Part shown: positions 14,542 to 35,728 of the stretch, piece by piece
How positions within the stretch are numbered: the stretch's first letter is position 1
Layout: each line of letters starts with the position of its first letter
Assembly (NCBI RefSeq): GCF_026168755.1
Contig: NZ_JAPFDR010000010.1
Location: 17,487-81,486, forward strand
From: Clostridium sp.
Lineage (GTDB): Bacteria; Bacillota; Clostridia; Clostridiales; Clostridiaceae
Direction: 5' to 3'
DNA length: 64,000 nt
The notes under the pieces: model-generated
What the model saw: the letters and a program-made list of their open reading frames with translations, nothing else
Databases searched by the model: none
Told to the model about the DNA's origin: nothing
Translations under genes and position numbers: made by a program

Positions 14542-14599
14542 GCATGTGCAGTGTGTACAAAAGTGCAACCTTTGCAACAATATTTGCCCCAATACGTTT

Positions 14600-14838
14600 A
14601 AATTTCCACCTCTATCAATTACTGTTGCTATACAAATCTGCTCATTACTTATACCACGTTTCTTAACTTGCTTACCTCTTTCTCGAGCAGCTCTCGGCAT
14701 TTTAAACCCACTCTTTTTATGATTACACTTGAAAGACTCAGTAACGAATGTTTCGTCCATCTCTACTATGCCATCTACATCACCAACACCCATAAATGCT
14801 CTTATACAATCAAGAACTTTATGTTGCAAGAACGACAC
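14600..14838 (-). pseudogene. IS1595-family transposase fragment
   Basis: GIVEMDETFVTESFK...KKRGISNEQICIATVIDR, typical of the IS1595 DDE region; truncated next to the att site. Confidence 0.8.
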
Positions 14839-15014
14839 ACATAACGTTGCTTACCTTTAAACTTTCCATTCTTCACTACAGAAGTAGATTAGCAATAAGG
14901 ACAACATTGACCCTTGCTAAATCTTGATTCTCTAAACTCTTCATTAAGAGTTACATTAGATATACCCATTTCCCCTATAAACATATTAAAAGGACCTACA
15001 TACGTAAGTCCTAA

Positions 15015-16042
15015 TTATATATACCTTAATTCATTGAAAAACTTTTTTCTTACTAAATCTGACTCCACTCTGTTATCCCTCATTGATAATATCCCTATAA
15101 GTTTTTGAGTTGTAATATGTGCAAGCTTTAAGTTGATAGGTAAAAGTGATATCATATCCATATTAGCCATATTTCTTATGCTAATGTAGTCTTCTTCTTT
15201 TTCAGACACAATTATATTTATTACATTACTAGCATAGCTTGAGGCCAAACTCACAGATATCAATCTTACCATAGCATCTAACCAATCTTCTTTAAATTCT
15301 ACTTCAATGGCTACGGTCAATTCCCCTGTATTATCTCCTATCCATACTACATCAACATAATCTATTTTCTCAAAAGACTTTTCTGATTTTAAATTTGATA
15401 GATCAAGATCTTGCATAGTGGCTATACAAACTGTATTTAAATTAACCCCATATATTTCTTTATTTTTATCATTTTGAGCTAATTTAGATTTATATCCAAA
15501 ATAAACACTAATGCTCCTATTTGAGATTGAATAGCTAGATGATTTTTATCAAACAAATAATACTTCCTCATAACTATAGAATTAATATCAGCCTCATTCA
15601 AAATTATTTTAATTTCACCAGTATATTTTTTACCGATTGTAATTTCATTCTCATCTTTAAAATATCCTTTAATTTTATTAGTAGAGGACTTAATAGTTTC
15701 AAAATACCCCTTTGATACTATCCATTTCATTTCTTCTATCTTTTCAAACAAATCATTAGTATACAGATAAATTACTTTGTCTCCAACAAGCTTAGAGATA
15801 ATGTACTTGCTATCACCCTCTGTTCTTTTTTCTAGCTTATTTAATGCAAAATCTGTAAAATTACTTTTACCACAAGCCCTTACGTAATCATATGGCTGAA
15901 CTATTCCGTATTTTTTTATGATCTTAGTTGCCTCTATATGATCAGCTTCTTTTAATTCTTTTTTTATCTGTTTAGTTTCAATATAATCATTAATTTTAAA
16001 ACTATCCAAAATTTTAATATAATTGTCTTCCACGTTAAGCAC
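15015..16042 (-). pseudogene. Putative type II restriction endonuclease split by a 1-bp frameshift near 15508
   Basis: Adding one base in TTAGTGTTT joins the ORFs 15479-16042 and 15015-15416 as ...HLAIQSQIGALGVYFGYKSKLAQND...; PD-(D/E)XK-like DVVW...AIEVE; next to an MTase. Confidence 0.55.
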
Positions 16043-16088
16043 TCCTTAAACTTACAATTATATTTTAGTTTGGATAGTTTCTTAATTT

Positions 16089-16970
16089 TTATTCATTTTT
16101 CTCTGATAAACTGTTCATTCTATAAATTAAATCATCATATATGTTGGCAACTAATTCACACCCAATAACATTTAATCCTTGTTCTAATCCTGCAATCAAG
16201 GTTGTCCCACTTCCTGCAAAAGGATCTAATATAGTATATCCCACTTTTGATGACATACTTAAACAAAACTTAGGTATGTCTATTGGAAATTTTGCTGGAT
16301 GTGTTATATTACTTTTTTCTGTTCTTCCATAACATCCAACATAACTATACAAATAGTTAGGAGTTATTTTGGAGTCTATATAATTTTCTTCTTGGCAATA
16401 TTTACATTTGAAGTGTGTTTTAACCTTCAATTGTTCAGTATTTATTTTATTCTTCTTTCCTTTTGTAAACGCTAGAATATACTCCCATCCATTTGCTAAA
16501 TAATATGCCTTATGTTTTCCTGCCGGTTGTGGATTTTTCTTTATCCATATTAAGGTATCCCAATGAATAAATCCTATCTTTTTTGCTATCTCTATAAAAT
16601 TACTGCTAAAATCAATTACTTCAAAATTTTCACGAGTATTAGCTATATTAATAAACATAAACCTATTATCCCTTAATACCCCATAACACAGTTGTAAAAC
16701 CTCTTCTATATCTTTTATATATTTATCTTTATCTTTTGTATTACCTATCTCTCCCTTTATCGGATTACCTTGACTAGCATAAACCCATTTAGCAATATTT
16801 CCATCTATCTTTGGTTTTCCTGCATATGACCTTCTATTAAAAAATGGTGGACTGGTCATAATAGTGTCTACAAATTCATTATTATTAATCATTTCTTGTA
16901 ATACATCTTTACAATCTCCTAAATAAACTTTCCAATTTAATTCACCAATTACTCCTTGTTCAAGCTTCAT
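16089..16970 (-). CDS. Amino-DNA methyltransferase, beta class (probably N4-C)
   Basis: Motif IV TSPPF near the N-terminus, HPAKFP, motif I DPFAGSGTT near the C-terminus. Confidence 0.9.
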   Translation of the reverse strand: MKLEQGVIGELNWKVYLGDCKDVLQEMINNNEFVDTIMTSPPFFNRRSYAGKPKIDGNIAKWVYASQGNPIKGEIGNTKDKDKYIKDIEEVLQLCYGVLRDNRFMFINIANTRENFEVIDFSSNFIEIAKKIGFIHWDTLIWIKKNPQPAGKHKAYYLANGWEYILAFTKGKKNKINTEQLKVKTHFKCKYCQEENYIDSKITPNYLYSYVGCYGRTEKSNITHPAKFPIDIPKFCLSMSSKVGYTILDPFAGSGTTLIAGLEQGLNVIGCELVANIYDDLIYRMNSLSEKNE

Positions 16971-17282
16971 TAATATACCCTATCTATACTTGCTATACCT
17001 TACCAATATATTAACTGCTTGTCCTATCTATTCTTAAATATTTTTATTGAGATTTTATTGGCTCATCAGGAACTTCTGTAAACCAAATACTAACTATTGA
17101 AGCATCATATCCAGTTCCATCTTCATCAATTATAAATCTATAATTACTATTAAATTCTCTATCATTAAGCTTTCCTGATATAATAGCACTTGCCCTAGCA
17201 ATCACTAAACACGCCTGTATACTTCTAAAAGAATAACTACTAAACTTTCCTAAATATGGATTACTAAAGTTGCTATTAAATC

Positions 17283-17320
17283 AAAAAAGAGTTAATGCTT
17301 AATACCAAAACATTAACTCT
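17283..17320 (-). terminator. Terminator after AAA copy 3
   Basis: agagttaatg / cattaactct stem with a U-tract on the - strand. Confidence 0.6.
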
Positions 17321-17330
17321 AAAACTATTT

Positions 17331-19031
17331 TTAATCTTTTATTTTTATTAGACAATCCTTTTTATAAAAGGCTATCCCATATTTGAAAATATTCTTATAA
17401 CCTTCACTTCTAAGCTCCATCTCATATTTCCTATCTTCTATTTGCTCTATAGCTTCATCTGCTTTTTTTTCTAAATCATCAATATAATTTGCTATTTTAA
17501 ACTCTATTACTATAGCAATTCCCCTTCTTGAAACTGACTTAATAAATAAATCACTTCTTCCGGTTCCACCTTCTCTATTAGATTTAACTATATATCCTTT
17601 CATATTAGAAAGAACTCCTGCTAAAAATCCATGATAGAAATTTTCATATGCATCGTTAAAGCTTATTGTATCTAAAAGTAAATTGTTTAATTCTACTTCA
17701 AAAAGCTCTGGTTCTTTATTTACTATAGCATTAAACATTTTTGTCATATCATAAAGTTTTATCTGTTCATTAAACCATTTAAGTATCTTAGTTCTAAAGA
17801 TATACTTTACTTCTAAGTTTGGTATTGCTAGCTCTACAAAGTTTTCTTGGGTATTCTCATCCATTCTTTCACTTATCTTTTTGAAATATCCTGTAAAGAA
17901 CATAAAGTTCCATAAGTTATCTAAATTATCATAAACATCTTCGTAGGTTATATCTTCATGTACTGGCTTTTCTATAGTTTTTCCTTCTATTAAAGCCTCT
18001 ATTTCTCCTTTTGTTATGTCATCTGCTCTTTCTATAAGACTTTTTACTATACTGTTTGAGCTAGTATTTGCCCAATATGATTTAGGTAATCTATTTATAT
18101 TAGCCTTTAAGTCATCAACATATTGCATTACACTCCAAGGATTATATACATTTGTTTCTCCAAATATATATCCATTGAACCACTGCTTTATAGTTTCATA
18201 CTTTTGTTGCATATTATAATCATCACAAATTTTTACAACCTCTTCATCTGTAAATCCAAAATGCTCTGCATATCTATCATCTAAAATTGATATGATTTTC
18301 AAGTTATTTAATCCAGTAAAAATACTTTCTTTTGAAATACGTAAGCAACCTGTAATTACTGAAAACTCTAATGATGGATTTGTTTTTAATGCTGATTCAA
18401 ATAGTGATCTTATAAAGCTTATCATTTCATTATAAAATCCCTCAAAAAATGCATTTTCTAAAGGTACATCATATTCATCTATTAAAATGATTACTTTTTC
18501 ATTGTGATATTTATTTAAGCAATTACTTAAAAATTTTAGTGCTGTAATATATAATGACATATCCTTATCATTATTTACAATTTTCATAAAATGTTCTTTC
18601 TCAGCTTTTAATACATCACTTTCTATTATATATTTATGTCTTTTAAATTCATTTGAAATTTCTTCTCTGATGCATTGAAATGCTAAATCCAAACTTCTTT
18701 GCTTTGCTGATTTAAGTGAAAGATTAATTACAGGATACTTACCTATATACTTAGTATATTTTTCACTTTCTCCCTTAATATTTAATCCTTCAAAAAGATA
18801 AGAGTTATCTATTTTCTCTCCAGTAAATTCATCTCTTCTATCTTCAAAATAATATTGAAGCATACTCATGTTTAATGTTTTACCAAACCTTCTTGGTCTA
18901 GTAAATAGATTTACTGCAGCTTTATTATCTAATAAATCCTTTATAAGAAGAGTTTTATCTACAAAATAATATCCCCTTGTTATTAACATTTCAAAATTAT
19001 CTATTCCTATTGGAAGTGGTTTTTGCTCCAT
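17331..19031 (-). CDS. AAA-ATPase-like plus PD-(D/E)XK nuclease protein, copy 3
   Basis: Visibly very similar to 8584-10257 (RPRRFGKT, LIDEYD, YWANTSSNSIVKSLIE, SNREGGTGRSD...IEFK). Confidence 0.9.
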   Translation of the reverse strand: MEQKPLPIGIDNFEMLITRGYYFVDKTLLIKDLLDNKAAVNLFTRPRRFGKTLNMSMLQYYFEDRRDEFTGEKIDNSYLFEGLNIKGESEKYTKYIGKYPVINLSLKSAKQRSLDLAFQCIREEISNEFKRHKYIIESDVLKAEKEHFMKIVNNDKDMSLYITALKFLSNCLNKYHNEKVIILIDEYDVPLENAFFEGFYNEMISFIRSLFESALKTNPSLEFSVITGCLRISKESIFTGLNNLKIISILDDRYAEHFGFTDEEVVKICDDYNMQQKYETIKQWFNGYIFGETNVYNPWSVMQYVDDLKANINRLPKSYWANTSSNSIVKSLIERADDITKGEIEALIEGKTIEKPVHEDITYEDVYDNLDNLWNFMFFTGYFKKISERMDENTQENFVELAIPNLEVKYIFRTKILKWFNEQIKLYDMTKMFNAIVNKEPELFEVELNNLLLDTISFNDAYENFYHGFLAGVLSNMKGYIVKSNREGGTGRSDLFIKSVSRRGIAIVIEFKIANYIDDLEKKADEAIEQIEDRKYEMELRSEGYKNIFKYGIAFYKKDCLIKIKD

Positions 19032-19214
19032 TTTGCCTTACCTCCACTTTCTTTCTTATCTCTTATTATATCCTAATTTTTATGTTGATTAAACAATAAG
19101 TTGAAATTATTTGGACTGTTATTTAAACTGTAATCCAATGGAATAGCGAGTAACCATTATTTATTTTAGTTAATCCCCCACACTCTAACATCTCCCTACT
19201 ATAATAACCAATAA

Positions 19215-20446
19215 CTATAATAGTGCAAAAATACTTGAATAATTTTACAACTGAATAAAATAAAAAACATTTATTATAAATCCTTGCTATAATTGAGTTT
19301 GCACACAACAATAACAGCAAGGAGCTATACATAAATGTTTCATAACACAATTATATCAAATGAATTATCATTACACAAATTTTTTAAACAATTAAATTTT
19401 GATTTATATCTAACTAAACCACAGTTAAACCACTTAGAAAGCATTATAGATGCAATGATATCAAAAGGTTTTAATGGTAAAGTTTCCGACATAGCGGAGC
19501 TTGCACCAGCAAGGCATCGAACTAGCATTACTAGATTTCTTTCAAATAGTTCTTGGGATGAAAAACTTTTAGAAAGAGCTTTAAAGGCGTATATAGTAGA
19601 ACTTATTTGGGCTAGAGCTAGAGAAACTAAGCAACCAATATATTTTATTATTGATGATACTATTTCAGAGAAAACAAAGCCCTCGTCAAAGGCTATAAAT
19701 CCAATTGAAAAGTGTTCATTTCATAATTCACATTTAAAAAGTAAAAATGTATATGGTCATCAAATATTAGTTTCTTTACTATCGTGTGACTGTTTAGTTC
19801 TCCCATATTCAATTAATATTTATGATAAAGAGTCTATGAGTAAAATAAAATTAACTCAAAAATTAATTGCAACACTTCCTAAACCAGAAGATAAAGGATT
19901 TGTTTTATGCGATAGTTGGTATAGTTGTAAAGATATTTTTAATGCTTCTGAAAAAGCTGGCTACAATTATATTGGTGATTTGAAGGATAGAAATAACATT
20001 TCTATTATTTTAAGTTATCCTAAAGATGCTTTTCAAAAAGATAAAGCATTGAAAGCTTTTATTTCCTTAGATAACTCATTAACGTCGTTAGAAATTTTAA
20101 CTCAATATACTGACCGTTGGGCAATTGAACCATTCTTCAGAGATTGTAAAACTTACTTAGGACTAGATGGATATCAAGTAAGAAGTGAAAAAAGTATTAC
20201 TAGATATTTAACAATAATGTTAGTAAACTATACTTATTGCAAAATATATGCTAATGATTCATATCACTTTAATACTGGATATAAAATAGCTAAGAAAGAT
20301 TTAGAAAAATCTAAAGTTATATATATTTACGAAGCTGCCGTAAGCGGTACGCCGATAGAAGCAATTTTTGAGTCATTAAGAATTGCTTAAGAATCTGTTT
20401 TTTTATTCAACTGTAAAATTATTCAAGCAAAACTGCACTATTATAG
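19215..20446 (+). mobile_element. IS701/IS4-like insertion sequence with about 47-bp imperfect terminal inverted repeats
   Basis: Left ctataatagtgca...cttgaataattttaca..tgaataaaa matches the reverse complement of 20400-20446. Confidence 0.75.
19335..20390 (+). CDS. DDE transposase (IS701-like), probably internally deleted
   Basis: IIDDT, CDSWYS, RWAIEPFFRDCKTYLGL; abrupt join at IGDLK/DRNN suggests a missing insertion domain. Confidence 0.75.
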   Translation: MFHNTIISNELSLHKFFKQLNFDLYLTKPQLNHLESIIDAMISKGFNGKVSDIAELAPARHRTSITRFLSNSSWDEKLLERALKAYIVELIWARARETKQPIYFIIDDTISEKTKPSSKAINPIEKCSFHNSHLKSKNVYGHQILVSLLSCDCLVLPYSINIYDKESMSKIKLTQKLIATLPKPEDKGFVLCDSWYSCKDIFNASEKAGYNYIGDLKDRNNISIILSYPKDAFQKDKALKAFISLDNSLTSLEILTQYTDRWAIEPFFRDCKTYLGLDGYQVRSEKSITRYLTIMLVNYTYCKIYANDSYHFNTGYKIAKKDLEKSKVIYIYEAAVSGTPIEAIFESLRIA

Positions 20447-20699
20447 CTAATAAATTTTTTAAACATTTTTCCCCTTTTAATTTAAAAATTTTTTAATATT
20501 CGAAGTAAAAATAAAATTAAAATAAAACTAAAAACAATTAATAAAATTATTATAAAACTTAGAAATGAATAATTTTTTAATTTTATAATACCTAATAAAC
20601 AAATAAAAAGAACAACTAAACCATAAATAGATATTGGTAAAGAAATTTTATTTCTAATATTAATTAAAATAGTTAAATTTGATATTAAAACAAAAATAC

Positions 20700-20960
20700 C
20701 TAAATATAATAACTAAAAGAAATAACATCCCATAAAACAATATAACTAAATCCCTTAGCTCTTAGGTCTTTTATCTCCTGAACTTGTTCATCAGTAAGTT
20801 GTCTTTTCTTAATTTGTAAGTCTATCTTACTCCCTAAATCCTTAATTTTATCTTCAAGCTCTTTTATGTATTTTGTATATTCATTTTTTAATTTTTGAAT
20901 CTCATTTCTGTGTTCTTCATTTAAATCTTTCATTTTCTCTAATTACCTGAATATAACTCA
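20700..20960 (-). pseudogene. Coiled-coil plus Hin-type HTH protein remnant
   Basis: KRQLTDEQVQEIKDLRAKGFSY then divergence; the RBS-bearing ATG near 20960 is out of frame with the called ORF. Confidence 0.45.
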
Positions 20961-21275
20961 TATTTATACCTCATTATATTTGCTATATATCTAATATAAT
21001 ATTTTTGTCTATAAAAAGAATAGGTTAACTACTAATTAACCTATTCAGTCTAATTATTTCATTCGTTTCCTTTTATATTTGTCATGTATTACATATGTCA
21101 TACATGAGTTTTTGATGTATTTTTCTAATGAAATCAACTTATTTTACTATTTGATTTTTATAATTTCGATAAATTATATTTTTGCGAAGAAATAAAAATT
21201 TACGATTTTAAGCCATTTGTAATATATAAAAAAATTAAAAAATAATAGTTTTTAGTTTACTATAAATAAACTTAT

Positions 21276-21323
21276 AAAAAAAGGTACTATTTCGTAACTA
21301 GACTTGCGAAATAGTACCTTTTT
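21276..21323. terminator. Strong inverted repeat (bidirectional terminator or cruciform)
   Basis: aaaaggtactatttcg / cgaaatagtacctttt, 16-bp perfect arms. Confidence 0.55.
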
Positions 21324-21797
21324 ACTCTTACATTTAAGGCATATGCCCTAAAATTAATCACCCAAGCTTTTCGACAATCATAGCCTCAGCATATGTCTTT
21401 TCAGTAGCAGTTGCTTGGTTGCTACACTCTTTTTAAACTGCCATTGAGTAAGAGCAGTACCCATTTGTTACTCGCTATCGGGTTAGAGACCAATAAATCT
21501 ATGTTTTATTATATCATAAAAAAAATTTCTAAATAAACTTTTTTTCTTGGATCTTTGGTTCTCCAATTTTAAGAGAAATAAGTATATTGCAATAGTCAGA
21601 AAGGTATATTTATGCAAATAAATAGAACAGGTACTACGTCCCCTATAATACAAGCTGAAAAAAATGGGGGTATATTATTTTTTACTTGCAAATTGAACTT
21701 TTTAAACAAATAGTGTATAATCACTTTTGAAGAAATGAATATAAAAAAATGAGCTAATTATATTAGCCCATTCTTTTTTAAATACGAAATGTGTCTT

Positions 21798-22232
21798 TCA
21801 AATGTTGTGGTACTGTGAATACCTAACATTATCATTATTTCTTCTCTTGTATTCCTTTTTAGAAATAATTGTAGTCATATAAGTTTCTTCAAGCTCTGGT
21901 AGATATTCATTTTGAATTTCTCTTAAATCATAAATATAATCATACTGCTCTATAACCTTAACAATTGTCTTAGATTTAGAATTAATACTTCCTGGTACTC
22001 TTAATACCCTCGTAGGGTCTAAAGCTTGTCTATCAGCTCCAAACGGCTTTAAAACACTATATAAATATTCTTCTATAGCTTTCCATAATGATAATGCCTT
22101 ACTTGGTACTGAATTTAAAAGCCATATTAAATAAAGTCCTCTCCCACTATCTATGATTAAATTAGGTCTTGGTATTTTTTTATTAAAATAATATGCTTCA
22201 AGGTGAATTATTATTTGCTCCTTAGTGAATTT
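21798..22232 (-). pseudogene. Plasmid-type replication initiator fragment (pIP404/pAMbeta1-like Rep)
   Basis: Startless frame: KFTKEQII...PNLIIDSGRGLYLIW...ALDPTRVLRVPGSINSKS...YDLREIQNEYLPEL. Confidence 0.65.
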
Positions 22233-22479
22233 ATAAATAGAATTAACATATATAGATTATGAGCCGGGTTTAAGGGCAGAGCCTTTTTATATTAAAATAG
22301 CTTGATGTAATCAAGATTTCCTTAGCTGCCGCAGGCTATAAATTCAAATCTTAATAATTAATTCGTTTATTCATGTATAGAAAAATTTAATTTGCAATAT
22401 TGAATATAGATAAAAGTATGAGAATGATTTCTGGATTAGAGATAAATGAATTAAGGATTAAGGTTTCCTTTTTAAAAAT

Positions 22480-22520
22480 AAATCCTCTCTTTTGCAGCTT
22501 AACTGCATATGAGAGGATTT
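22480..22520 (-). terminator. Terminator after the Fic-like gene
   Basis: aaatcctctc / gagaggattt with inner tgcag/ctgca. Confidence 0.65.
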
Positions 22521-22531
22521 ATTTTAACACC

Positions 22532-23278
22532 TTAGATTAATTCATTATATTTTTTATAATTAAATCCATCGAAAAACGTTATACATTTTTCTAATATAAA
22601 CTTTATTACTTCATCAGCTTCTAAAGTTTCATAAAAATCTAGCATTAATTTATTATACTCAACCTTATATCTAGCTGGTATAGAAAGTACTCCTATATCA
22701 TTTGATAACAGGATAAGGTTTGATGAAAGTCTAGCTGTTCTCTTATTTCCATCATAAAAGAACTGACAGTAAGATAACCATAGATTAAGTATAATAGCTT
22801 TTTCAAGTAAATTATCTATAGAATTTATTTTATCTATATCAGCTTTAAATACTTCCTCTAAATCCTCATAATTAATGCACTTATATTCAACAGTACCTGC
22901 AATTCCAATGTTACCCTTTCTAAAGTCACCTACTATTAATGCCTCATCTTTAGCAACTTTACTATGAATATCACAAATAACTTCTTTGTTTAACTCTAAA
23001 GAATTTGTTCTACTCAAATTAACAACATAATCCCATGATGACTTTATATTTAGTATTTGATTTTGATCACTTAACTTATGGCCACCAACAGTAATGCCAT
23101 CAAGTAATGTTTGTACCTCTGGGAAAGTAAATGGATTATTTTCCAAATTTCCCATATCATAAACAAACTCACTAATCATCTGCTTAACATAAGTTAAAAT
23201 ATATCTTTTATCTCCATGTGGTAATTCCTCTTTAAATTTATATCTATATCTAGGAATAAATGTATCCATAGCCAACAC
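22532..23278 (-). CDS. Fic/Doc-family protein with a non-canonical motif
   Basis: NPFTFPEVQTLLDGITVGG; motif CQFFYDGNKRTAR. Confidence 0.8.
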   Translation of the reverse strand: MLAMDTFIPRYRYKFKEELPHGDKRYILTYVKQMISEFVYDMGNLENNPFTFPEVQTLLDGITVGGHKLSDQNQILNIKSSWDYVVNLSRTNSLELNKEVICDIHSKVAKDEALIVGDFRKGNIGIAGTVEYKCINYEDLEEVFKADIDKINSIDNLLEKAIILNLWLSYCQFFYDGNKRTARLSSNLILLSNDIGVLSIPARYKVEYNKLMLDFYETLEADEVIKFILEKCITFFDGFNYKKYNELI

Positions 23279-23407
23279 CTCAAATAAATATTTATTATTT
23301 TTCTCTTACTATTATACACCAAGATTATTCTAGCTTAAACAAAAATTGAATTATTGTTAAGCTGAAATTTCATAGCTAGTATTTATATTGTGACATTCCT
23401 CTCAAGG

Positions 23408-23644
23408 TTATAGTGTAAAGCTACTAACAACCTTAGTTATCTTTTTAATATAATCATCTGCCAGCCCATCAATTCCATCACAAATAAACTTTAAGCTACA
23501 GGTCTCACAGTTCTTAATTATATTTTGATCTATAAGTGAACACTTAAACTCATCATTATATGTTGAATTTCTAATTGCTAAAGCAATACTTAATCTATCA
23601 TAAACTTCTCCCTCTTCAGTAATTTTAATTCTATTAGATATCAT
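23408..23644 (-). CDS. Hypothetical 78-aa Cys-containing protein
   Basis: GGGGTGTGG RBS before the ATG; CETC motif. Confidence 0.55.
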   Translation of the reverse strand: MISNRIKITEEGEVYDRLSIALAIRNSTYNDEFKCSLIDQNIIKNCETCSLKFICDGIDGLADDYIKKITKVVSSFTL

Positions 23645-23848
23645 AATACCACACCCCTTAAATTTTTCTCATTAAAAGAATGTGAAGAAATAGGTTTTGA
23701 AGCACCTGATAAAATAAAAGGTAACTTAGTTCAAGGTTTTTCATTTACAAGTGAGCCAATAAATTTTGCACCTATACCTCAATCTACAATAGAAAAAACT
23801 AAAGTAGAAAAGCAAAAAACTAAAAAGAATAATACAGATATTTTAGAT

Positions 23849-24052: not shown

Positions 24053-24146
24053 ATCAGTATAAAAACTTACTGATTTATTTTTTTATAAGTAAATATACTA
24101 TCTACTTCCCTCTTCAAAACCATATATATTATTTGGAGGTGATATT

Positions 24147-24334: not shown

Positions 24335-24452
24335 TATAAAAAAATCTGATAGGCCAAAAGTTTATCATATTTTTTATATTTTATTATTAACTTTTGATTT
24401 CTTCTTTTTAAACCATATATATTAAATACCAAGCTACAAGGAGGTGAATAAC

Positions 24453-24680: not shown

Positions 24681-24718
24681 CTTTATTAATTTAAATATTA
24701 TAGAAAGGGGGAGAAACC

Positions 24719-24937: not shown

Positions 24938-24940
24938 TTT

Positions 24941-25100: not shown

Positions 25101-28100
25101 TTATAACTTAATAGTAAATCTCTTTGCTTCTCTACTAAAAAGCTTACATATCGCATCATACACAACTCTTTTAACTTTGACTTCTGATCCTATTATATAA
25201 GGAACTCTATAGCTTCCAGTATCAACATCATCAAAACAAACTTCCCACTTAGAGTACTTCACCACGGTCTCCCCTGTTCTATCTATGCCAATTATCCCTT
25301 CACCATTATCTGTAATCTTAATTCCGAGAACATCCAAAATTTCTCCCCTAATACTTAGATAATCATATGGTCTAAATGTTAAATAAATATCCTCATTAAT
25401 CTTAAGATTAGAAGCAACTAATAGTGAATTTCTTTTAAGATAATCTGGTTTAATAAACTCATTATTTTCATCATATAGCCTATACTCTTTTTTAAGTTTC
25501 ATTAAAGGAACAACATCCTCTTTATCTGTGAATACTACACCAGAAATTACTATTGTTGAATCTATATTCTCTATTAAATTATTCTTATACTTTTCTCTTT
25601 TATTATAACAACGTTCATAGTAAGCTAATGAAATCCATTCTTCAGAATACACATCAGTTATTGAGTCAGTAACTTCTTCAGGCATATTAATATCCAATGG
25701 ACGAGGAATAATTGAGTTGCAATTGGCAATTAAATACTCTATATCATCAATCAATATTTCATTCATTTTTTCTTCTATTTCACTTAAAAATGGTAATTCT
25801 ACAAATCCATTGAGGAATGCTTCTACTTCACGACTCATATGCTTCATTAATATATCATAAAAATAAACATTTGGTACAAGTACACTATATGATCTATCAT
25901 ATATTATATCTTGTAGATTTTCTCGTGTAGACTTATCGTTTATTTCACGAAAATAATTCTTAGCAATATTCCCAATATCAACACCGCTATCCTTTAGTAA
26001 AGCAACCCTATTATCTGTCTCAGTTAAGATTTCTATAAAATAATTAATACTGTCATCTCCACCATCATATGAGTGAACATACTTTTCGTAATTTCTTTCA
26101 TCTTTCAGCCCAGTAATGTTCCTAATCAAGTAGTTTACAATCCCATTATCAGTTGGATAAATACTTAGTAAATCATTAATTAAATTGTTTTTACGTAACT
26201 CTTCTTCAGTAAACCACTTTCTAATAAGCCACAATAAAATAATTAGTGAGTAGTCAATGAATCTATCCTTCTTTTCAATATAACGCTTGAAAGGTTTTAT
26301 GAAACATATACGATACTCTGGCTGCTCTAACATTTTGTTAAGCGAAGATATAATCCATCTATAACGATTTGCTTCACCATATTTTAAACGAGTAAGTAAT
26401 AGAAACATTGCTTTTTCTATAGAAGAGAACTCTTTAGACTTTTCAACTATTTCCTTATAATTATAATCATATTGTCCTGATAGTCTAAAATTAATTATCT
26501 CAAACAATGACTCCCAATAATGAAGAATTAATTCACCATCATATCCAACCGCTGTTAACGCATTTATTATTTTATCACCTACTGCCAAATTATAGTCAAC
26601 CCGATAAAGATTATTATAAAAATATTCAAAAAAATACTCCTCTGCAACTTCTCTATTATATTCTACTGCTTTAATATAATATCCTGTTTCAGTTAACCTC
26701 TGATACCACCCATCTTTATGATTCAAAAACATCGCTATGTAAATATACGCCATAACTTCTGAATTTAAATCTAAAGCATCAATAACTTTTAGTATTCTTT
26801 CTCTACTTTCATCATCGCTCCTTCTATCATATGTGTGCTTTATTAGGTTGTTGATAAACATTTTTGAGTCATCACTCAACTCACTAATTGACTGCAAGTA
26901 TATATACAATCCTTGAATATCACTTTCATTTATTCCAAAATCAACAATATACTCAAGTATTTCCTCAAAAGACATTACATCAAAACTTAAACGACTCACA
27001 TGTTTATCATAACTAAACTTCTTTCCTCTACCTATATCATATGTTCTATTTGAACTACAATTTAATATAATTTCAGAATTAAATTCTACGTTCAGTTGCT
27101 CACACAATCCTTTTATTTTCTCATAATCATCTTCATAGATTCCTTTCGGATATCTATTTATCAATTCTCTCATAGAAACTCTAGCTAATTCCTTTTGAGA
27201 ATTATTACTTAAAACTCGTATGTTGTTTAAATAACTACTAATAGTGCTAGGACTAATTTCATTAGGTCTCGTTTTAAAAAGAGAATTTTCTATAATAGGA
27301 TCTACTTCACTATTCATACTCTCTAAAAGATTATCTAAACTTTCTTCTAATGCCCAATAATTTGATGAATCCAATAGCTCATAACTCAGATATGTCATAG
27401 CAATATCTCTGTTAGTTCTAGCCAAAACCTCGAACCACTCTTTTGGATAAGTTTGTGTACTTCTGCCATCAGTATGATATACAACGGCATCGGCTAATGG
27501 CTTTAGTCTTAATATATTCTGAATACCAGTTTCCTCATCAATTTTATAAATACTCTCGACACTATCTATCAGTCGACTTAGTGTACGATCCTTTCTAAAT
27601 GAATAAGACAATAGATACTCTACACCTCTTCGAAATTCAACTTTTGCTTTGTCTAACCGACCACCCTTTGAAAGGATAATTGCATGTTTAAAACTATAAT
27701 CAGCCAAATATGAATAAAATCTTCGTTTATCCTCATCGCCTATTTTTTCTTCAAATATTTCTGTTAAAACTGTACAATTTATATCATTTGCTATTACTAA
27801 GAATAACTCGAAAAGTTTGTACGTAGGTAGTGGACCGCAAGTAGCCCCCATTAGCGTAGACATAGTTTTACTTGACATCTCAGCAATCAAACCAAGTATT
27901 GTACGCCATGTAGATTCAGTTGATACTAGTTCAAGTGGTGATACTATTGATTCAAATATAATTGTCTTATAATTGTACAAATCACAAGTACGCGGTTTAC
28001 CCTTAAAGCATTCCATGTCCTTTGTTAACCATAAATATGCTTCTATTAGTTTTGACTCATCAATAGACTTATTTTCTTTTGCTTCAACAATTACTTTACT

Positions 28101-30869
28101 CACTTTAAATACATATATTAACCAATTATAATACCAATTTCTATTTTCAGCACACTTAATAAAATCATTTAATTTATTTGAATGGTTTGTAATAATCCAT
28201 TCAATGTTACTAATATAGTAATTTAGCGCAATTAAAGTGTCATTAGAGTATGAATCTGAGTCCAATAATATCTCAAGAGCAGTATCAAGATATTGTTCAT
28301 CAATTATATACTTACCCTCGAATACATCTATACTTTCTACCCAATGTTCTTGTTCCTCAAGTTGGTTTACCAGTGCTTTTAATTCTTCAATTAATCCTCT
28401 CCTTGAATATTCAGTTATTATCACCGTCCTCTTATCATATGCGTCTTTAACTGCAACTTTTTCAATCTTATCAATCATATTTCGGCCAGTATCTAAACAT
28501 GCACAAATAAAATATCTATACTCTTCTAATTGCTCATCATGACTCTTTCGCACTACTTGATTAGATTTCTTTGATTCTATGAGTAACCTTATATACTCGT
28601 CCCATTCAGGAATTACATTATTTTCAGAGCAGAGATAACAGACTTTTAATCCTTCACTGCAACTTAGTGCATTTCGTCCTTCGTAAACTAAAATATTTTC
28701 AAGTTTTTCGAACCCATTAATAAGACCTAATCCAAGATAATAATACTGAGAAACCTCATCAAATGAATATTCTAGACTGTAAATCATATTACTCAATTCA
28801 GTACATATGATTACAGCGCCATAATTTTTAGCTTTACAAGATGCCTTCATTAAAATCTCAAAATTGCTTTTTATAAAATTAATGTTATTACCATAAAAAA
28901 CGCTGTCAACAACAAATTCCTTATTGCAATATTCTAAAATTTCTTCATAGCGTTTAGCTTCAAAAAGAAGTCCAAGTAAATTTAGATACGACTTTCTATC
29001 TTCATAGAATCCCTTTTTTTTCAACCAGTCTATCAAGTATGAATAAATGGCTTTATCTACACTAACTTCATTTTCTTCTAGTAATTCAAGAACATATCTT
29101 CTAAAACTTTCATGATAAATTTTATAACATCCAGAGCAACTACTATAAGATAATATACTTCTAATAGCCTCTAAACTTTTAGAAACATATACACCTAAAG
29201 AAGTAATCTCCTTAAGTTCAGATTCTGTTAATGGAAATGGAGAACCTGCCAATATTTGTGGCACCTTTTGACTTTCAGAGAGTTTTGTCATTAAAAATGA
29301 ATAGTAATTTTCCAAATTGATATTATAAGCTGGGAATCCTTCAATCAATTCTCTTGTTATCATAACATGAGTATATTTAGATAATTCGTTTACTAAATAC
29401 GTTAAATATAATGGATTCCCTTAACTTTTTTCAATCAATAAGTCTGATAACATACAGTGAAAATCCAGCTCAACGTCTGTTAAGCTATTATTTGTAATAA
29501 ATTCTTTTACTTCACCAATGTCCCAAGGTTTCACTGAAAACTCCTTAAAGTTATGATTGCACAAATTAATAACCTCAGTAATTGGCTGTGAGGCTAAAAT
29601 AACTTTTACGTTGTCAGGAAACATCAGCCGTGATATTACTTCCACAATTTCAGTCTCAATTTGTTTCATTGTTTCTTTATGAAAACTATATATTCTACCA
29701 ATATGATCTAATCCATCTACAATTAATACTACTTCTTCTTTTATATTATTAATTAAAACTTGCAATTCATCAAAATCCACCCCATATTTCGAAATCTTAT
29801 ATGACTCTAAGTGTGGAAATGCCTCAATAATGGCATTTATTAAATTCGCTAAGAATACATTTATAGTTATTCTTTCTTTTTCATATAGATCATCTATTCC
29901 CGTATAACAATAATGCTGAATAACTTTAATTCCTTGTTCATCGAGAAAGCTTATAAAGTTTTGAATGAACCAAGACTTTCCTGAACCTGGTTCACCAAGT
30001 AGACATACTTTATTGTTTGTAAATACAAAATCCTTAAATTCATGATATCTTGTTGAATTTAGTACATTAATAGATCTATCAATCTTAAAACTCTGCTCAA
30101 TGTTTCCGTAACTTTTCTTCAGACCTAAGTCAAAAATCAATTTATTTAGTTCAATAACTTCACCTCTTGCACGTAGTCCTTTAATGATATATATCAAGTG
30201 CATGGAAACATCAACTACTGATTTCTTATCATTTGGAAATTTCCCAATACCAAAGAGCCTTAGGCTATTTATAACCAAATTCTCTAAGTCACCAGGATTA
30301 GTAAAATCTGTACTTGATTTTGGAAGATTCACTTCAATAGTTAAATCATTAATAAATTTCTGAAATTCATCTCTATTAATATCCGTGGACTTCCCTCTTA
30401 ATCGTCTCCATGATGAAATAGGAATTCCATCTGAAGGCCATATACTTTCAAGATTAATTTTTAACACTTTAACATCATTACTTTTATACAAATTAGTTAC
30501 ATCTTGCTCTACTAAAAAATCAATGTCTTGAGAATCCATAAGCAACTCCCATGCCAAACAAATCCTGATATCAATATTCTTGTCTTTCGGTAATTCTTGC
30601 CATGATCTAAATAATGTATCTAGTGCTAAATCGTATTTTTCAGAAGACAAATCTGCTTTTTCAAATATTTTATTATCACTATACTTAATCTGTTTCTTCA
30701 TTATTGAATCACTTGTAATAATAGTAATATCATCAAACTTATCATTTTCAGATTCTTTTTGATCAATCTTGAAGATAGCACTGTCATCAGTTAATAACAT
30801 ATTTATAATATGATATGCCGTAAATAAATCTTGGTATTCATATCCTTTATGAGCATCTAATAAACTCAT
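25101..30869 (-). pseudogene. Avs (AVAST)-like nuclease-STAND ATPase-helical sensor, 1922 codons with one in-frame stop
   Basis: N-terminal GYEYQD...DD...KQIK nuclease, Walker A GEPGSGKS, Walker B IVDGLDH; TAA at 29421-29423 in EKS*GNPLYL, then in frame into the 1420-aa ORF. Confidence 0.8.
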
Positions 30870-31138
30870 AATCTAAACCTCCTTCAAGTTTCTATATTTC
30901 TAACTATATAGCATAATCTCAATTTATTTATGATTTGGTTATCTTTTCATTATTCTAAATAATTAAGTTAAATAAAAATTTCTATTTCACTCATAATTTT
31001 AGTAATTTATTTACTATATATCAACATAATTTACCTAACAATTCCAAAAAACCATTTATATTTTATGAGCTCTACATAAAATTCATTATATAAATTAATA
31101 CATATATCATAAAGATAATAGATTTATAATTATATATA

Positions 31139-31888
31139 CTACTCTAATCTTCTCATCTTTATATAAACATAAATACCACCATCAACATCATTACACACCA
31201 CATCATTGCCAGTATAAATAAACCCTGGATAAAGCTTCTCAAAGACTTCTCTTTCCCCTTGGTTTTGTGATAGCTCATATAATTTTTTATTTGAATACTT
31301 ATAATCATTAATCTTTGGCAATGGTATAATTATATTCTTAGATTGACTCCATCTTTTCTTTCCTCTAGGATCCTTTGAAAGATAATTTGCTAATTCTTCA
31401 AAACCTAGTTCATTAGCTTGCATTCTATTTGCATTAGCTGTGCCTTTTCCCCATAGTTCTTCTGCCTTATCTCTATCCATTCCAGATATTATAATGTGAT
31501 GGTGGATTCTTGTTTTTGTTCTTTTATCATCTGTAGCTTCTCTATATTCTAAAACTGCTATATATTTTAATTCATCAAGTCCATTCCTCTTCCTAAAGTT
31601 TTTAATTCTCCTAATATAATTATTTCTATCACGAATAGCAGTCTCTTCACTATTTGGAAGATTAGCTGCATCATAACTAAGGCTAACTATTAAATCCTTA
31701 TTATCAAAGTTAGCATGAATTCTTCTTCTTAAATTCTTTCTTGCATTTTTATCATTTAGGTTCTTTTGTTCCTTTCTACTCTCCTTCTTTTTCTTTGATC
31801 TACTTTTCTTTTGTTCATATTTAGAAATAGGATATATTTCTACTTCTAAATATTTACCACATAGAAATCTCTTCTCTCTAATAGCCAT
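31139..31888 (-). CDS. HUH rolling-circle replication initiator-like protein
   Basis: RIHHHIII (HUH) and LANYLSK (catalytic Tyr); GGGG RBS; intact. Confidence 0.75.
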   Translation of the reverse strand: MAIREKRFLCGKYLEVEIYPISKYEQKKSRSKKKKESRKEQKNLNDKNARKNLRRRIHANFDNKDLIVSLSYDAANLPNSEETAIRDRNNYIRRIKNFRKRNGLDELKYIAVLEYREATDDKRTKTRIHHHIIISGMDRDKAEELWGKGTANANRMQANELGFEELANYLSKDPRGKKRWSQSKNIIIPLPKINDYKYSNKKLYELSQNQGEREVFEKLYPGFIYTGNDVVCNDVDGGIYVYIKMRRLE

Positions 31889-32057
31889 ACCCTTTACCCC
31901 TATAACTTTATTTCTTAAATTTAAATAACGTTCTAAAGATAATACCTATTACAAGCTCTCAAAGTCCTTAAATTAAGTACCTTTAAAAAACAGTTTATTT
32001 ACAGAGAAAACTCCCTATTGTATAATAAAAATAGAGAGTTTTATTAAACTTTTCATC

Positions 32058-32100
32058 AAGACACATTGAGATTAATCTTGCCGGATTGCCAATGTGTCTT
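32058..32100. repeat. 11-bp perfect inverted repeat upstream of the HUH Rep
   Basis: AAGACACATTG-N21-CAATGTGTCTT. Confidence 0.7.
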
Positions 32101-32489
32101 TTGCTGGTAAAATATTATTTTCATAGCTTAATCTCCAAAATCTTAAGTGTACCAGACCATTTAATATATCTAAAATTCTTGTTCCCTTTTTTAAAAACTT
32201 GTATTTTACTAAATTCTTCTTCTGTAACATATGTGCTTTTTACACATTACCTTCACTCTAGTTCTAAAACTAATTTCAAAGTATTAATATCTCTTAATTC
32301 AACCATGTAACCTCTTCACCTTTAAGAACACTTAACTCAACCCTAAGCCAAATCAGCATACTTCTTAAAACCTCTATTTCAAACTTTATATTTTCAATGG
32401 AACTCTTCATTAAATAATACCTGATTTTAGCTAAGTCTCTATTAAGTCTAAGCTGTGCAATTTTCCCATACCTCTATATTAATTTCCAT

Positions 32490-32798
32490 ATTTTATCCCT
32501 CCACATTTAATAATTTAATTTCATTTTCTAGCACCAATGGAACTTTATAATTAATAATTATTTCTTTTACCATATCTATAGAAATTGCATTATCTATTAC
32601 TGTAGTCACTGGATTCTTTAAATTATTGGTTGCTCTTTTTTAAGCCACCCTTATAAAATCAATTTCTTCCTCAAATCCATACTCAACCATTCTTCGGAAC
32701 CAATCCTTATACTTAGTTCCTATTTCTAAAAACTCATCTAATTCTCTACCACTTACTAATTGTCTACCTTCTCTTTCTATTATCTTAATTAATTCCAT
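32490..32798 (-). pseudogene. AntA/AntB phage antirepressor remnant
   Basis: MELIKIIEREGRQLVSGRELDEFLEIGTKYKDWFRRMVEYGFEEEIDFIRVA*KRATNNLKNP; TAA at 32640-32642. Confidence 0.75.
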
Positions 32799-32918
32799 TA
32801 CTTAATCACTCCATTTCTAATTATCTCCTTAGCTAATACTTATTAAATTCACCATTTAACAAATTCTTTATTATGTTAATCCTTATTGGTTAAGGCTAAT
32901 TAGCCTATTTTTCATAAG

Positions 32919-33074
32919 TTAATCAAAGTACTTACAATCATTTTCTTCAAGATAATCAACAATTAAATCTATTTCCTCAGACGTAAATTTTTGTATTGCA
33001 ATATCTGTTAATATATCTATTAACTTATTTTCTAAAATACTCATATCTTCTGGATAAATACATGTAATCGTCAC
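32919..33074 (-). CDS. 51-aa acidic protein divergent from recombinase A; candidate recombination directionality factor
   Basis: Manual: GGGGG RBS, GTG start, MTITCIYPEDMSILENKLIDILTDIAIQKFTSEEIDLIVDYLEENDCKYFD*. Confidence 0.65.
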   Translation of the reverse strand: MTITCIYPEDMSILENKLIDILTDIAIQKFTSEEIDLIVDYLEENDCKYFD

Positions 33075-33101
33075 TATCTCGCCCCCTATAAATTAATAAT
33101 C

Positions 33102-33130
33102 TATACTATGCTTGTACACTTCTTTTGGTT
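33102..33130 (-). promoter_or_regulatory. Sigma-K-type promoter for the 51-aa ORF
   Basis: AACC-N16-CATAGTATA, a full match to mACm-N16-CATAnnnTA, 28 bp before the GTG. Confidence 0.65.
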
Positions 33131-33257
33131 ACACTTAGTAATACTTTATACACTAAAGAAAAGATTGAGATTGTATTTATCTAAAGAACTTATTAGGATA
33201 AATCTAAAATATATTTATTTTAAAATAATGTTGCATATATTAAACTGAGGTGATTAG

Positions 33258-34895
33258 ATGAAGATTGCTATTTACTCAAGAAAGAGCAAATACACAGGAA
33301 AAGGTGATTCCATAGGTAACCAAATTCAAATGTGTAAGGACTACATTGAGACTAATTATAGAAATAAAGACCATGAATATATTATTTATGAAGACGAAGG
33401 ATTTTCTGGTGGAAATATCAACAGGCCAAAGTTCCAGAAGCTTCTTAATGATATTAAAAAAGAAAAATTTGATATTCTAATATGCTATAGACTTGATAGA
33501 ATTAGTAGAAATGTATCTGACTTCTCCACTACCTTAGATGAAATTCAAAGCTATGGAGTTGATTTTATAAGTGTTAAAGAACAATTTGATACAACTACTC
33601 CAATGGGAAGAGCTATGATATACATAGCATCAGTATTTGCCCAACTTGAACGTGAAACCATTGCTGAACGCGTAAGAGATAATATGATTGAACTAGCCAA
33701 GTCAGGAAAATGGTCTGGAGGTAGAACCCCTCTTGGCTTTGATAGTGAAGGTTCATCTTATATTGATGAAGAAGGAAATGAAAGAAGATTAGTTAAACTT
33801 GTGAAAAATGATGAGGAGCTAAAACTAGTTAATCTTATTTATGATACTTATCTAAGAGAAGGTTCATTGCATAAAACAGAAACTTACTTTGCTTCTCACA
33901 ACATTAAATCAAATAGAAATATCCTTCTTGAAAAAACATCATTAAAGGTAATCTTAAATAATCCTGTTTATGCAATAAGCTCTCCAGAACTTAAGAGGTG
34001 GCTTGAGGATGATGGATGGAATGTATATGGTGAACCTGATGGCAAACATAGCTATCTTAGTTATAATAAGACAAAGCACGTAACTAGAAATGGGAAATCA
34101 ATGAAAATACCAAACGATAAAGAAAATTGGATAGCTGCAATAAGTAATTGCCCTGGTATAATTGAAGCAGATAAATGGATTCAAGTACAAGAACAATTTA
34201 AAGGCAATAGAGGTTCATTCCCTAAAAAAGCAAGAACCCACGATGCAAAACTTGTTGGAAAAATATATTGTGCCCACTGTAATAACTACATGCAGGTGAT
34301 TCATGGAAATATTAAAAAAGATACAGGAAAAAGACAACACTACTACTCCTGCTCATTAAAAAAGAAATCCAAAAATGAATTATGCAAAAACAAAAATGTT
34401 AAGATAGATGCTGTAGAAGATTTATTACTCCAAGAGCTAGAAAGACTAGATAAAAATAAAAAAAGCTATATTCAAAGCCTTAAAAAGAAAAATAACTCAG
34501 TTAAGAAAAATAAAGATGTAAAACAAAAGCAGATATCAATACAAAAAGAAATTGATGCCAAACAAAAAATACTTAATAATTTAATAGATAAGTTAGCAAT
34601 TGCTGATGACCTAGATGATATAATAATACAAAGAATAAGATCCACTAAAAATGAAATGCAAGAGTTACAGAAACAACTAGATGAAATATCAAAAGAGATA
34701 GAAGATTCAAACTACAAGAAATTAGACCTAGACTTTATAAAAAGCTTACTAGAAAAGTGTGCTGATATAAGAGAACTAGATTCTAATGAACAAAGACTCC
34801 TAATAGGTGTTTTAGTAGATAAGATTCTATGGGATGGTAATACTCAAGATGTAACAGTATATTTCATTGGAAGTGGAGACGTAAAAAAAAAGTAG
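33258..34895 (+). CDS. Large serine recombinase (SpoIVCA/CisA-like), element A
   Basis: 545 aa; YSRKS, EDEGFSGGNINRP, RLDRISR, GGRTPLGF, zinc ribbon CAHC...YYSCS; intact with GAGGTG RBS. Confidence 0.95.
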   Translation: MKIAIYSRKSKYTGKGDSIGNQIQMCKDYIETNYRNKDHEYIIYEDEGFSGGNINRPKFQKLLNDIKKEKFDILICYRLDRISRNVSDFSTTLDEIQSYGVDFISVKEQFDTTTPMGRAMIYIASVFAQLERETIAERVRDNMIELAKSGKWSGGRTPLGFDSEGSSYIDEEGNERRLVKLVKNDEELKLVNLIYDTYLREGSLHKTETYFASHNIKSNRNILLEKTSLKVILNNPVYAISSPELKRWLEDDGWNVYGEPDGKHSYLSYNKTKHVTRNGKSMKIPNDKENWIAAISNCPGIIEADKWIQVQEQFKGNRGSFPKKARTHDAKLVGKIYCAHCNNYMQVIHGNIKKDTGKRQHYYSCSLKKKSKNELCKNKNVKIDAVEDLLLQELERLDKNKKSYIQSLKKKNNSVKKNKDVKQKQISIQKEIDAKQKILNNLIDKLAIADDLDDIIIQRIRSTKNEMQELQKQLDEISKEIEDSNYKKLDLDFIKSLLEKCADIRELDSNEQRLLIGVLVDKILWDGNTQDVTVYFIGSGDVKKK

Positions 34896-34943
34896 ACTCT
34901 CTACTTCCTGATTTATTCCAATTGTTGCAAATTCAACCACACA

Positions 34944-35728
34944 GCATGACCAGTATCAAGTAAAACTATATTTTCTGCAAACTCCTTAAGTGCATATTGT
35001 TGACATACCTTTGTACTAAGCTTACCATAATTTACATCTTCATCAGGAACCTTTAAAACAACTACCCCTGTTTTATCTAGTTGCTCTCTAATTTCATTAG
35101 ATAAACTTTCCTTTGCAAGCTTACAAGATCCTGAAAATGCTCCAAGTGCATCTCCATCTCTTTCACCTTGAATATCTGAAACTCCACATCTTGCACTTAT
35201 ACTTAATCTTGGTCCAAAAGCAGGGCAACGCAATATACACATAGAACATCCATTACCATATCTTAAACAATTCCCCATAGGTCCTGTTGAACCAGTTGTT
35301 TCAATAAACACATCACCTTTAACGTAAGTGTCATCACTTAATAAAATTCCCCTTATCTTATTGTTTTCAACATCAACATCTTTAACACGACTCTCTAAAT
35401 GAAGATGTATTCCTAATGATTTCAAATAATCTCTTACTACACCTTCAATAATATTAACATCATAAAGAGTTGCATGTTTATGACCAGGGAATTCTATATT
35501 AGCATGTCTTGCACATTTATCTGTTATTTCAATTAAGTCTCCTGCCCCTAAAGCTATAAGCTCTTCTGATGCAGTATAACGTCCATTATTTCTCATTATA
35601 CCACCAACATTACCAAGTCCAAGTAAAAGATCTGTTTTTTCATAGATATGGACATCTGCTCCAGCTTTCTTCGCTGTTATTGCGGCAGCACAGCCTGACC
35701 AACCTCCCCCAACAACTACTACCTTCAT
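34944..35728 (-). CDS. Segment 1 (N-terminus) of the interrupted GidA/MnmG-related FAD oxidoreductase
   Basis: VVVGGGWSGCAAA FAD-binding motif; native sequence ends at DTGHA (codon 262); the tail VWLNLQQLE* to 34913 is element DNA. Confidence 0.92.

Follow-up and report, generated by a model that had tools for sequence, protein, structure and literature searches.

How does a 20.4-kb mobile element (element A, approximately 14547 to 34948) come to lie inside a Clostridium FAD-oxidoreductase gene, which it splits, and which bases at its ends does its integrase use? We addressed these questions in the window, meaning the whole 64-kb stretch of DNA that was analyzed, and in relatives of the element and of its host gene.

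The host gene was reconstructed from its separated parts. The N-terminal part (34949..35728, minus strand) encodes amino acids 1 to 260/261 of a GIDA-family protein of 425 amino acids. Two elements, A and B, lie inside this one gene, and its middle part (14329..14544, minus strand; amino acids about 261 to 332) is stranded between them. In-silico excision, joining 35728..34944, 14541..14329, and the sequence from 4121 onward, regained the 425-amino-acid protein, which is 95 to 96% identical to intact 425-amino-acid proteins of relatives, collinear over the full length, and free of indels. At the DNA level, gap-free alignments were obtained between the rebuilt site and the empty sites of 12 relatives. 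The gene product is an uncharacterized FAD oxidoreductase, encoded in an apparent operon (4-bp overlap) with a PRK05802-type flavoprotein; identity with TrmFO was ruled out (38 bits against a cut-off of 429).

Both junctions retain an intact GCATG core, at 14542..14546 (plus strand), from which host sequence continues leftward, and at 34944..34948 (plus strand). The junctions thus share a short core with a nonpalindromic 2-bp crossover, and excision in silico restores the target exactly. We place the crossover dinucleotide, TG, at 14545-14546 and 34947-34948. A preliminary description of this DNA had singled out the shortness of the core, which is not notable, as only the central 2 bp are known to have to match in serine integrases.

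Adjacent to the right junction is a gene for a large serine recombinase of 545 amino acids (33258..34895, plus strand). It has all three defining domains intact: a resolvase N-terminal domain (PF00239, residues 3-152, 6.5e-40), a recombinase domain (PF07508, residues 186-317), and a zinc ribbon (PF13408, residues 332-394). When its N-terminal domain is aligned with the one in TP901-1 integrase, YSRKS falls opposite YTRVS, which we take to hold the catalytic serine. The protein is full length and 90 to 93% identical to the integrases of four relatives; among phage integrases, that of vB_CpeS-CP51 (CP51) is closest, at 55% identity. The reading frame ends 51 nt short of the crossover dinucleotide, and the core ATG lies in a different frame, so attP is not inside the integrase gene of element A.

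When joined, the element ends form an attP of about 50 bp, an imperfect inverted repeat centered on TG (34947-48/14545-46). The integrase-proximal arm (34923..34946, minus strand) reads outward TGCTGTGTGGTTGAATTTGCAACA, and the integrase-distal arm (14547..14570, plus strand) reads TGCAGTGTGTACAAAAGTGCAACC. They match at 16 of 24 positions, including TGCAAC at positions 18-23 of both (34924-34929 and 14564-14569). Every other center within +/-6 bp gave at most 10 matches of 24, and in a scan that also allowed gaps of 0 or 1 bp nothing rivaled TG except the trivially equivalent gap-0 reading in the same register. By chance, 5e-4 of window positions reach a score of at least 16, as do 2e-4 of random end pairs (null P = 2-5e-4). 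Both arms recur in relatives: the integrase-proximal arm is found with few or no changes in G130, G078, G060, and G126, and the first 23 nt of the integrase-distal arm are identical (23/23) in G007, G126, G078, G060, and G130. The core at each end, the arm match, and the distal TGCAAC were thus as the preliminary description had given them, as was a perfect 11-bp inverted repeat between 14571-14581 and 34921-34931.

Elements occupy exactly this target site in 20 or more further species of the genus, with integrases 46 to 93% identical to that of element A. Most of these relatives are prophage-sized (37 to 58 kb). All of their junctions run from host sequence through CATGC into an arm, with the core common to every junction examined. 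The arms are 23 nt long and end in (G/A)CAAC at positions 19-23. Across 35 distinct arms, T1, C3, C20, A21, and A22 are invariant, while positions 24-30 carry at most 0.5 bits. Arm symmetry around the same dinucleotide was found in 18/18 elements using this site and ranges from 14 to 21 of 24. The lineage of the window lies at the bottom of that range (14-16/24), and its attP is the least symmetric of the family, so the earlier term "strongly symmetric" was overstated. The arms co-vary: the two arms of one element agree at more positions with one another (18.2 of 23) than with arms from other lineages (15.8 of 23; permutation P = 2e-5). In many relatives the arms double as coding sequence, and protein constraint could thus explain part of their conservation.

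Two further comparisons bear on the site. Elements G096 and G080, whose integrases are 74% identical, have the same arms, but one is inserted in reverse relative to the other and its central dinucleotide is inverted; this pair supports a TG/CA center because only there is the arm register equal in both. The free phage CP51 carries a contiguous attP, GTTGTCTTTTTATTCACACAGCA followed by TG and TCCAGCATGAATAAAAAGACAAC. Two other phages were set aside: Terrisporobacter phage TPELB_ph1 (integrase 50% identical) has a differing symmetric site, and Clostridium phage HM T (integrase 46% identical) has no such site in the stretch read. A literature search for the att sequences themselves gave no matches, and one on CP51 integration, this attB, and attP sites inside int genes gave nothing relevant.

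The host half-sites follow the pattern published for LI integrase, in which the zinc-ribbon domain (ZD) motif lies at attP positions 16-24 and is shifted 5 bp inward in attB, the offset that distinguishes attB from attP in that model (PMC3783163). Outward from the crossover, the attB half-site on the N-terminal gene part (34949-34972) reads ACCAGTATCAAGTAAAACTATATT, and that on the middle part (14521-14544) reads TGCAAAGCTTATGACAACTTATTA, with GACAAC at positions 13-18. A weight matrix derived from positions 16-24 of attP was tried at 25 offsets along each attB arm and peaked at start 11 in both. The right arm scored +5.5, and the left arm scored -2.4, a weak match with a negative score at the predicted offset. 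The distal motif thus lies 5 bp nearer the center in both attB arms than in attP, as the zinc-ribbon-domain model predicts.

Taken from sequence comparison, these observations argue that element A very probably was inserted into the 425-amino-acid gene by serine-recombinase attP x attB recombination, with strand exchange at TG within GCATG. The restored gene, reuse of the site by the family, co-variation of the arms, the CP51 attP, the G096/G080 pair, and the motif shift in attB all support reading the ends as attachment sites. In the proposed mechanism, exchange would occur at TG (window plus strand; CA in gene sense) within the common GCATG, and each 23- to 24-nt attP arm would be a half-site for one integrase subunit. 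Inner positions 1-13 (consensus TGCtGTGTGAACA) would be read by the recombinase domain and linker, and the distal (G/A)CAAC at positions 19-23 by the zinc-ribbon domain, which in the host attB arms would meet the same motif 5 bp nearer the center. The nonpalindromic central dinucleotide would set the orientation of insertion. This assignment of domains to contacted bases is inferred, and the decayed element may or may not still recombine. Element A would then be a further, genuine case of a known system, with ordinary large-serine-integrase attachment sites.

The proposals of the preliminary description are therefore upheld in part. That the ends are junctions of a large-serine-recombinase element is supported by the restored gene, the empty sites, the integrase domains, and the family site. 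The choice of TG as the probable crossover draws support from the symmetry and the G096/G080 flip; sequence identity alone resolves only the 5-bp core. TGCAAC as a likely zinc-ribbon-domain site agrees with the conserved distal motif of the family, the ZD position in the LI model (PMC3783163), and the 5-bp inward shift in attB.

Whether element A still moves is a separate matter. There is an appreciable chance, though short of an even one, that the sites are correct and the element is a fixed relic that does not excise, the gene being permanently inactivated and not conditionally restored. The cargo has decayed: an IS1595-family transposase fragment (14512..14838, minus strand; NF033547, E = 1.1e-11, profile positions 44-107 of 215) replaces a helix-turn-helix (HTH) gene at the left end, the HTH frame is down to 40 codons, and an IS4-like transposase lies inside the element. 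In addition, the assembly holds only the integrated state. Given the IS1595 fragment, the IS4-like transposase, and the lost HTH gene, element A may no longer be mobile. Against this, the integrase is full length with its three domains intact and close to those of four relatives (90 to 93% identity), the integrase-distal arm matches those of relatives at 23/23 positions, the integrase-proximal arm differs from theirs little or not at all, and GCATG is intact at both ends.

The lost HTH gene also bears on how attP is embedded in coding sequence. In nine relatives and phage CP51, the int frame of the excised form runs, in silico, through attP into a tail of 64 to 96 amino acids with an HTH domain; the CP51 attP sits inside a 655-amino-acid int-HTH reading frame. 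The HTH frame of relatives is 91 to 97 amino acids long with a PF01381 HTH domain. In the window, a remnant of this frame starts at the core ATG (MCSVYKSATFATIFAPIRLN...) and extends over 40 codons (14544..14666, plus strand). We tentatively suggest, as a possibility below even likelihood, that the core is a gene junction, where integration cuts an XRE-type HTH tail off int and leaves the tail to begin at the ATG within GCATG. The integrase and HTH proteins of the phage would then differ between its free and integrated states, and element A would be a decayed descendant in which a second copy of the 11-mer TTTGCAACAAT is left over from the frame and is less likely an extra integrase-binding site. 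The literature searched gave no description of a state-sensing switch of this int-HTH kind for serine integrases. A parallel is integration-dependent immunity in mycobacteriophages, in which attP lies in an open reading frame and integration alters the product; the nine relatives and CP51 have such an arrangement, whereas element A lacks it.

That second copy of TTTGCAACAAT (14571..14581, plus strand; arm positions 25-35) had been put forward as an accessory site. Its inverted-repeat partner (34921..34931, minus strand; arm positions 16-26) overlaps the distal motif of the integrase-proximal arm. The 11-mer occurs exactly twice in the 64 kb, once near each end of the element and each time within 35 bp of a junction, against about 0.15 occurrences expected by chance. 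The second copy is also a closer match to the distal 9-mer of the other arm than is the canonical copy at positions 16-24, and TGCAAC is kept at its place in five of the six elements of the lineage. Despite these points, we regard it as unlikely that the copy is an accessory or alternative zinc-ribbon-domain binding site modulating synapsis or directionality. It is missing from all other lineages with the same attB, where arm positions 24-30 carry little information. It lies 9 bp past the canonical motif, outside the approximately 50-bp site needed by serine integrases and probably farther out than the linker joining the recombinase and zinc-ribbon domains can span. Its codons read in frame as F-A-T-I of the conserved HTH frame, homologous to the T-T-F-x-x-I-F linker of other lineages. 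The sixth element of the lineage, G126, has TGCAAT at this place, and the integrases of the six are 90 to 98% identical, too close for conservation to inform. A simple sigma-70 scan of the window and relative L055 for a role of the copy as the -35 box of the adjacent HTH gene gave no promoter using it. To our knowledge, serine integrases do not need accessory sites. Because the copy is confined to one lineage and lies inside the start of the HTH reading frame, the accessory site is unsupported; the copy is most likely a lineage-specific by-product of a frame that begins at the core ATG.

It is very improbable that strand exchange falls at GC, CA, or AT (plus strand) of the core instead of TG: in each element examined, junction identity does no more than confine the exchange to the 5-bp core, and as CATG is palindromic an AT center could in principle account for both insertion orientations, but symmetry is 16/24 at TG against at most 10 elsewhere, the same symmetric position recurs in all 18 elements and CP51, the integrase-proximal arms of G096 and G080 meet the same host dinucleotide only with a TG/CA center, and GC and AT are palindromic and so would give no polarity.

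Element A can be compared with several known systems. The A118/LI prophage integrase (Rutherford et al. 2013, PMC3783163) has the same domain order and is about 32% identical over residues 1-362. In both systems attP forms an imperfect inverted repeat with a 2-bp crossover at its center, the distal motif falls within positions 16-24 and lies 5 bp farther inward in attB, and the element inserts within a gene. They differ in the motif (TTTAGTATC for A118/LI, (G/A)CAAC here) and the target gene. The Clostridium perfringens temperate phage CP51 (KC237729) shares the attP architecture and the GCATG/TG center, with GACAAC at arm positions 18-23. It is, however, a complete 39-kb phage with attP within its int-HTH frame, whereas element A lacks virion genes, has an integrase frame that ends ahead of attP, and has lost its HTH gene to destruction. 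Experiments with Bxb1 and phiC31 (Ghosh 2003; Smith 2004), as recounted in PMC3783163, have orientation set only by the central dinucleotide; G096 and G080 form a natural parallel to that account, drawn from genome comparison and not from experiment. Gene-intervening elements of spore formers include skin in sigK, SPbeta in spsM, and gin in gerE (PMC4191935, PMC5595907, PMC5025042). Like them, element A is a serine-recombinase element splitting a protein-coding gene in a Clostridium-like spore former; if it were excised precisely, the frame would be regained. Unlike them, its host gene, an FAD oxidoreductase, has no known sporulation role, and most relatives at its site are 37 to 58 kb.

These findings leave the accepted model of serine integrase action unchanged. 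The family provides a series of integrases, 46 to 98% identical, in which one attB is kept while the attP arms co-vary, and is thus useful material for studies of DNA recognition; related integrase tools might come from it as well. The family further offers a natural example of polarity reversal through inversion of the central dinucleotide. If the gene-junction proposal is true, the int-HTH frame would be a state-sensing switch in the phage. For the host, the boundaries of element A are now fixed to the base, and its precise excision would restore the oxidoreductase gene.

The window is Clostridium DNA of low GC content (about 27%). On its minus strand, a GIDA-family FAD-oxidoreductase gene is broken into three: the N-terminal piece spans 35728..34949, the middle piece (0.2 kb) 14544..14329, and the C-terminal piece about 4121..3842. 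Element A, with a large serine recombinase at 33258-34895 (+), lies between the N-terminal and middle pieces, and element B, with a large serine recombinase at 4192-5790 (-), between the middle and C-terminal pieces. Joined at the cores, the pieces give a 425-aa protein that matches intact 425-aa proteins from end to end at 95 to 96% identity, and the restored DNA (...GATACTGGTCATGCAAAGCTTATGACAAC...) aligns without gaps to the unoccupied sites of 12 related genomes. As judged by these alignments, the element A junction is exact. Element B spans about 10.2 kb and is flanked by the 12-bp direct repeat TCATACTGAAGC (gene sense; 4122-4133 and 14329-14340); the recombinases of elements A and B share only 34% identity. 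A hairpin, GTAGA-CTC-TCTAC (34883-34904), overlaps the element A integrase stop codon. It has a weak stem with 2 G-C pairs, is followed by a nine-T run on the minus strand, and could act as a terminator of read-through out of the truncated host gene.

The features named in the preliminary description are present: a GCATG core at 14542-14546 and 34944-34948, arms identical at 16 of 24 positions, TGCAAC at positions 18-23 of each arm, and exactly two occurrences of the 11-mer TTTGCAACAAT (14571-14581 and 34921-34931). About 0.15 copies of this 11-mer are expected per whole window, and both observed copies lie at most 35 bp from a junction. Centered on TG, the arms score 16/24, while any other center within 6 bp on either side gives 10 or less; scores of at least 16 have a frequency of 5e-4 among window positions and 2e-4 among random end pairs. 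Calling this attP strongly symmetric was an overstatement, as the window's lineage ranks lowest, at 14 to 16/24, versus 14 to 21/24 among the 18 elements with both ends available.

Of 126 genomes of the genus, 78 have homologues of the integrase (E <= 1e-60; 32 to 93% identical), and in more than 20 species the oxidoreductase gene is split at exactly the position of element A. Every junction read has the order host-CATGC-arm (gene sense), and the arms of the 18 elements are symmetric about the same dinucleotide. The 35 distinct arms have the consensus TGCtGTGTGAACAAAAntaCAAC, with T1, C3, C20, A21, and A22 invariant. Using one element per integrase lineage, we found that an element's own arms agree at 18.2/23 positions, versus 15.8/23 across lineages (permutation P = 2e-5). 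Paired arms therefore co-evolve, as would be expected if one protein reads both. Part of the arm conservation may be due to protein-coding constraint in the relatives.

Across the genus, the oxidoreductase gene (window 3842-35728, -) is hit at three separate positions: aa 261/262 (site A, more than 20 species), aa about 332 (site B; element B, G004, G008, G035, G130, and G061), and aa about 87 (site C; G017 and G024). Double occupancy, as in the window, is seen in G130 and G061. One site A insertion (L070; G050:C1:1019500-1024600) is a minimal 4.6-kb element with little beyond the integrase; its arms are highly symmetric, scoring 21/24. In several other lineages (N-side arms of L013, L015, L038, and L045), the distal motif of the integrase-proximal arm forms the 5' half of a hairpin, e.g., AAATGCAACA-TTAG-TTGTTGCATTT. 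Genome G007 (L001, L019) has an intact gene copy, 96% identical to the restored protein. A more diverged copy in this genome is occupied at its C-side junction, and there are further C-terminal fragments; paralogues or a mixed assembly could explain this.

Sequence identity alone limits the exchange point to the 5-bp core. Within it, symmetry and a natural polarity flip both point to TG (+ strand) as the probable crossover. The integrase gene is at the opposite insertion end in G090 (L028), G080 (L030), G055 (L031), and G115 (L033). Compared with G096 (L029), these members of one integrase family sit in reverse orientation at an identical host dinucleotide. G096 and G080 have the same two arms in opposite orientations, with integrases 74% identical, and, read in the direction of the integrase gene, one has TG as its central dinucleotide and the other CA. 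TG/CA is the sole center that keeps the 23-nt arm register equal in both orientation classes. This flip mirrors experiments with Bxb1 and phiC31 (cited in PMC3783163).

In the structure of the LI integrase with attP, the zinc-ribbon domain reads attP positions 16-24, and in that system its motif sits 5 bp nearer the center in attB than in attP (PMC3783163). We scanned both attB arms with a weight matrix of positions 16-24 from attP arms of element A's integrase family. The best start was 11 in both. In the right arm, TGCAAAGCTTATGACAAC, with GACAAC at positions 13-18, this was the only positive offset (+5.5); in the left arm, where the distal-motif match is weak, it scored -2.4, still the top of 25 offsets. 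Placing the zinc-ribbon domain on the distal TGCAAC, as suggested earlier, is therefore consistent with the published model, and we infer that this domain would make the contact. Cross-species comparison corroborates both the center and the distal motif, in support of the attachment-site reading.

The closest phage integrase, at 55% identity, is that of Clostridium perfringens phage vB_CpeS-CP51. Its packaged genome has the contiguous site GTTGTCTTTTTATTCACACAGCA-TG-TCCAGCATGAATAAAAAGACAAC, which scores 19/24 and is the top symmetric site in 700 bases scanned across the int gene end; the architecture predicted from the joined ends of element A therefore exists in an unintegrated phage. Site A relatives are mostly of prophage size (37 to 58 kb), the G050 remnant being 4.6 kb. 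Element A is without virion genes and carries an HUH-type Rep, a STAND/Cap4-like NTPase with an adjoining 1420-aa protein, a Fic protein, an N6/N4 DNA methylase, an AAA-ATPase/PD-(D/E)XK protein, and an IS4-like transposase. It seems to descend from CP51-type prophages, through decay or a swap of cargo, and its integrase and attachment arms are intact.

The second TTTGCAACAAT copy (14571-14581), earlier proposed as an accessory site, is real and no chance match. It is confined to the window's lineage (G007, G078, G060, and G130; G126 has TGCAAT instead), and arm positions 24-30 show no conservation in other lineages. In nearly all lineages, a frame of 91 to 97 aa opens with the ATG inside the GCATG core, crosses the integrase-distal arm, and has an XRE-type HTH domain (PF01381) at its end; the second copy encodes F-A-T-I where a conserved T-T-F-x-x-I-F segment stands. 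As a -35 box it found no support in a simple promoter scan. Being coding and restricted to one lineage, it is quite unlikely to be an accessory integrase site. In the window, an IS1595-family transposase fragment (14512-14838, -), at the position of the relatives' HTH gene, shortens the frame to 40 codons; the left end of element A is remodelled.

When the ends are joined in silico in nine related prophages and in free phage CP51, the integrase frame continues through attP into a 64- to 96-aa tail with an XRE-type HTH (L013/L014, L035/L064, L038/L062, L039/L063, L045/L067, L046/L072, L047/L066, and, in CP51 at 3000-3460, L073). The fused CP51 frame is 655 aa in the GenBank annotation. The fusion is missing from element A and from the G096/G080 and G018/G050 lineages, and our literature search found no description of an attP-spanning integrase-HTH fusion for serine integrases. 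Integration would cut off the HTH tail, whose first codon would then be the ATG within GCATG, and the fusion may be a state-dependent switch. Judged by sequence, the element A sites are an ordinary example of serine-integrase attachment sites, surrounded by a useful comparative series.
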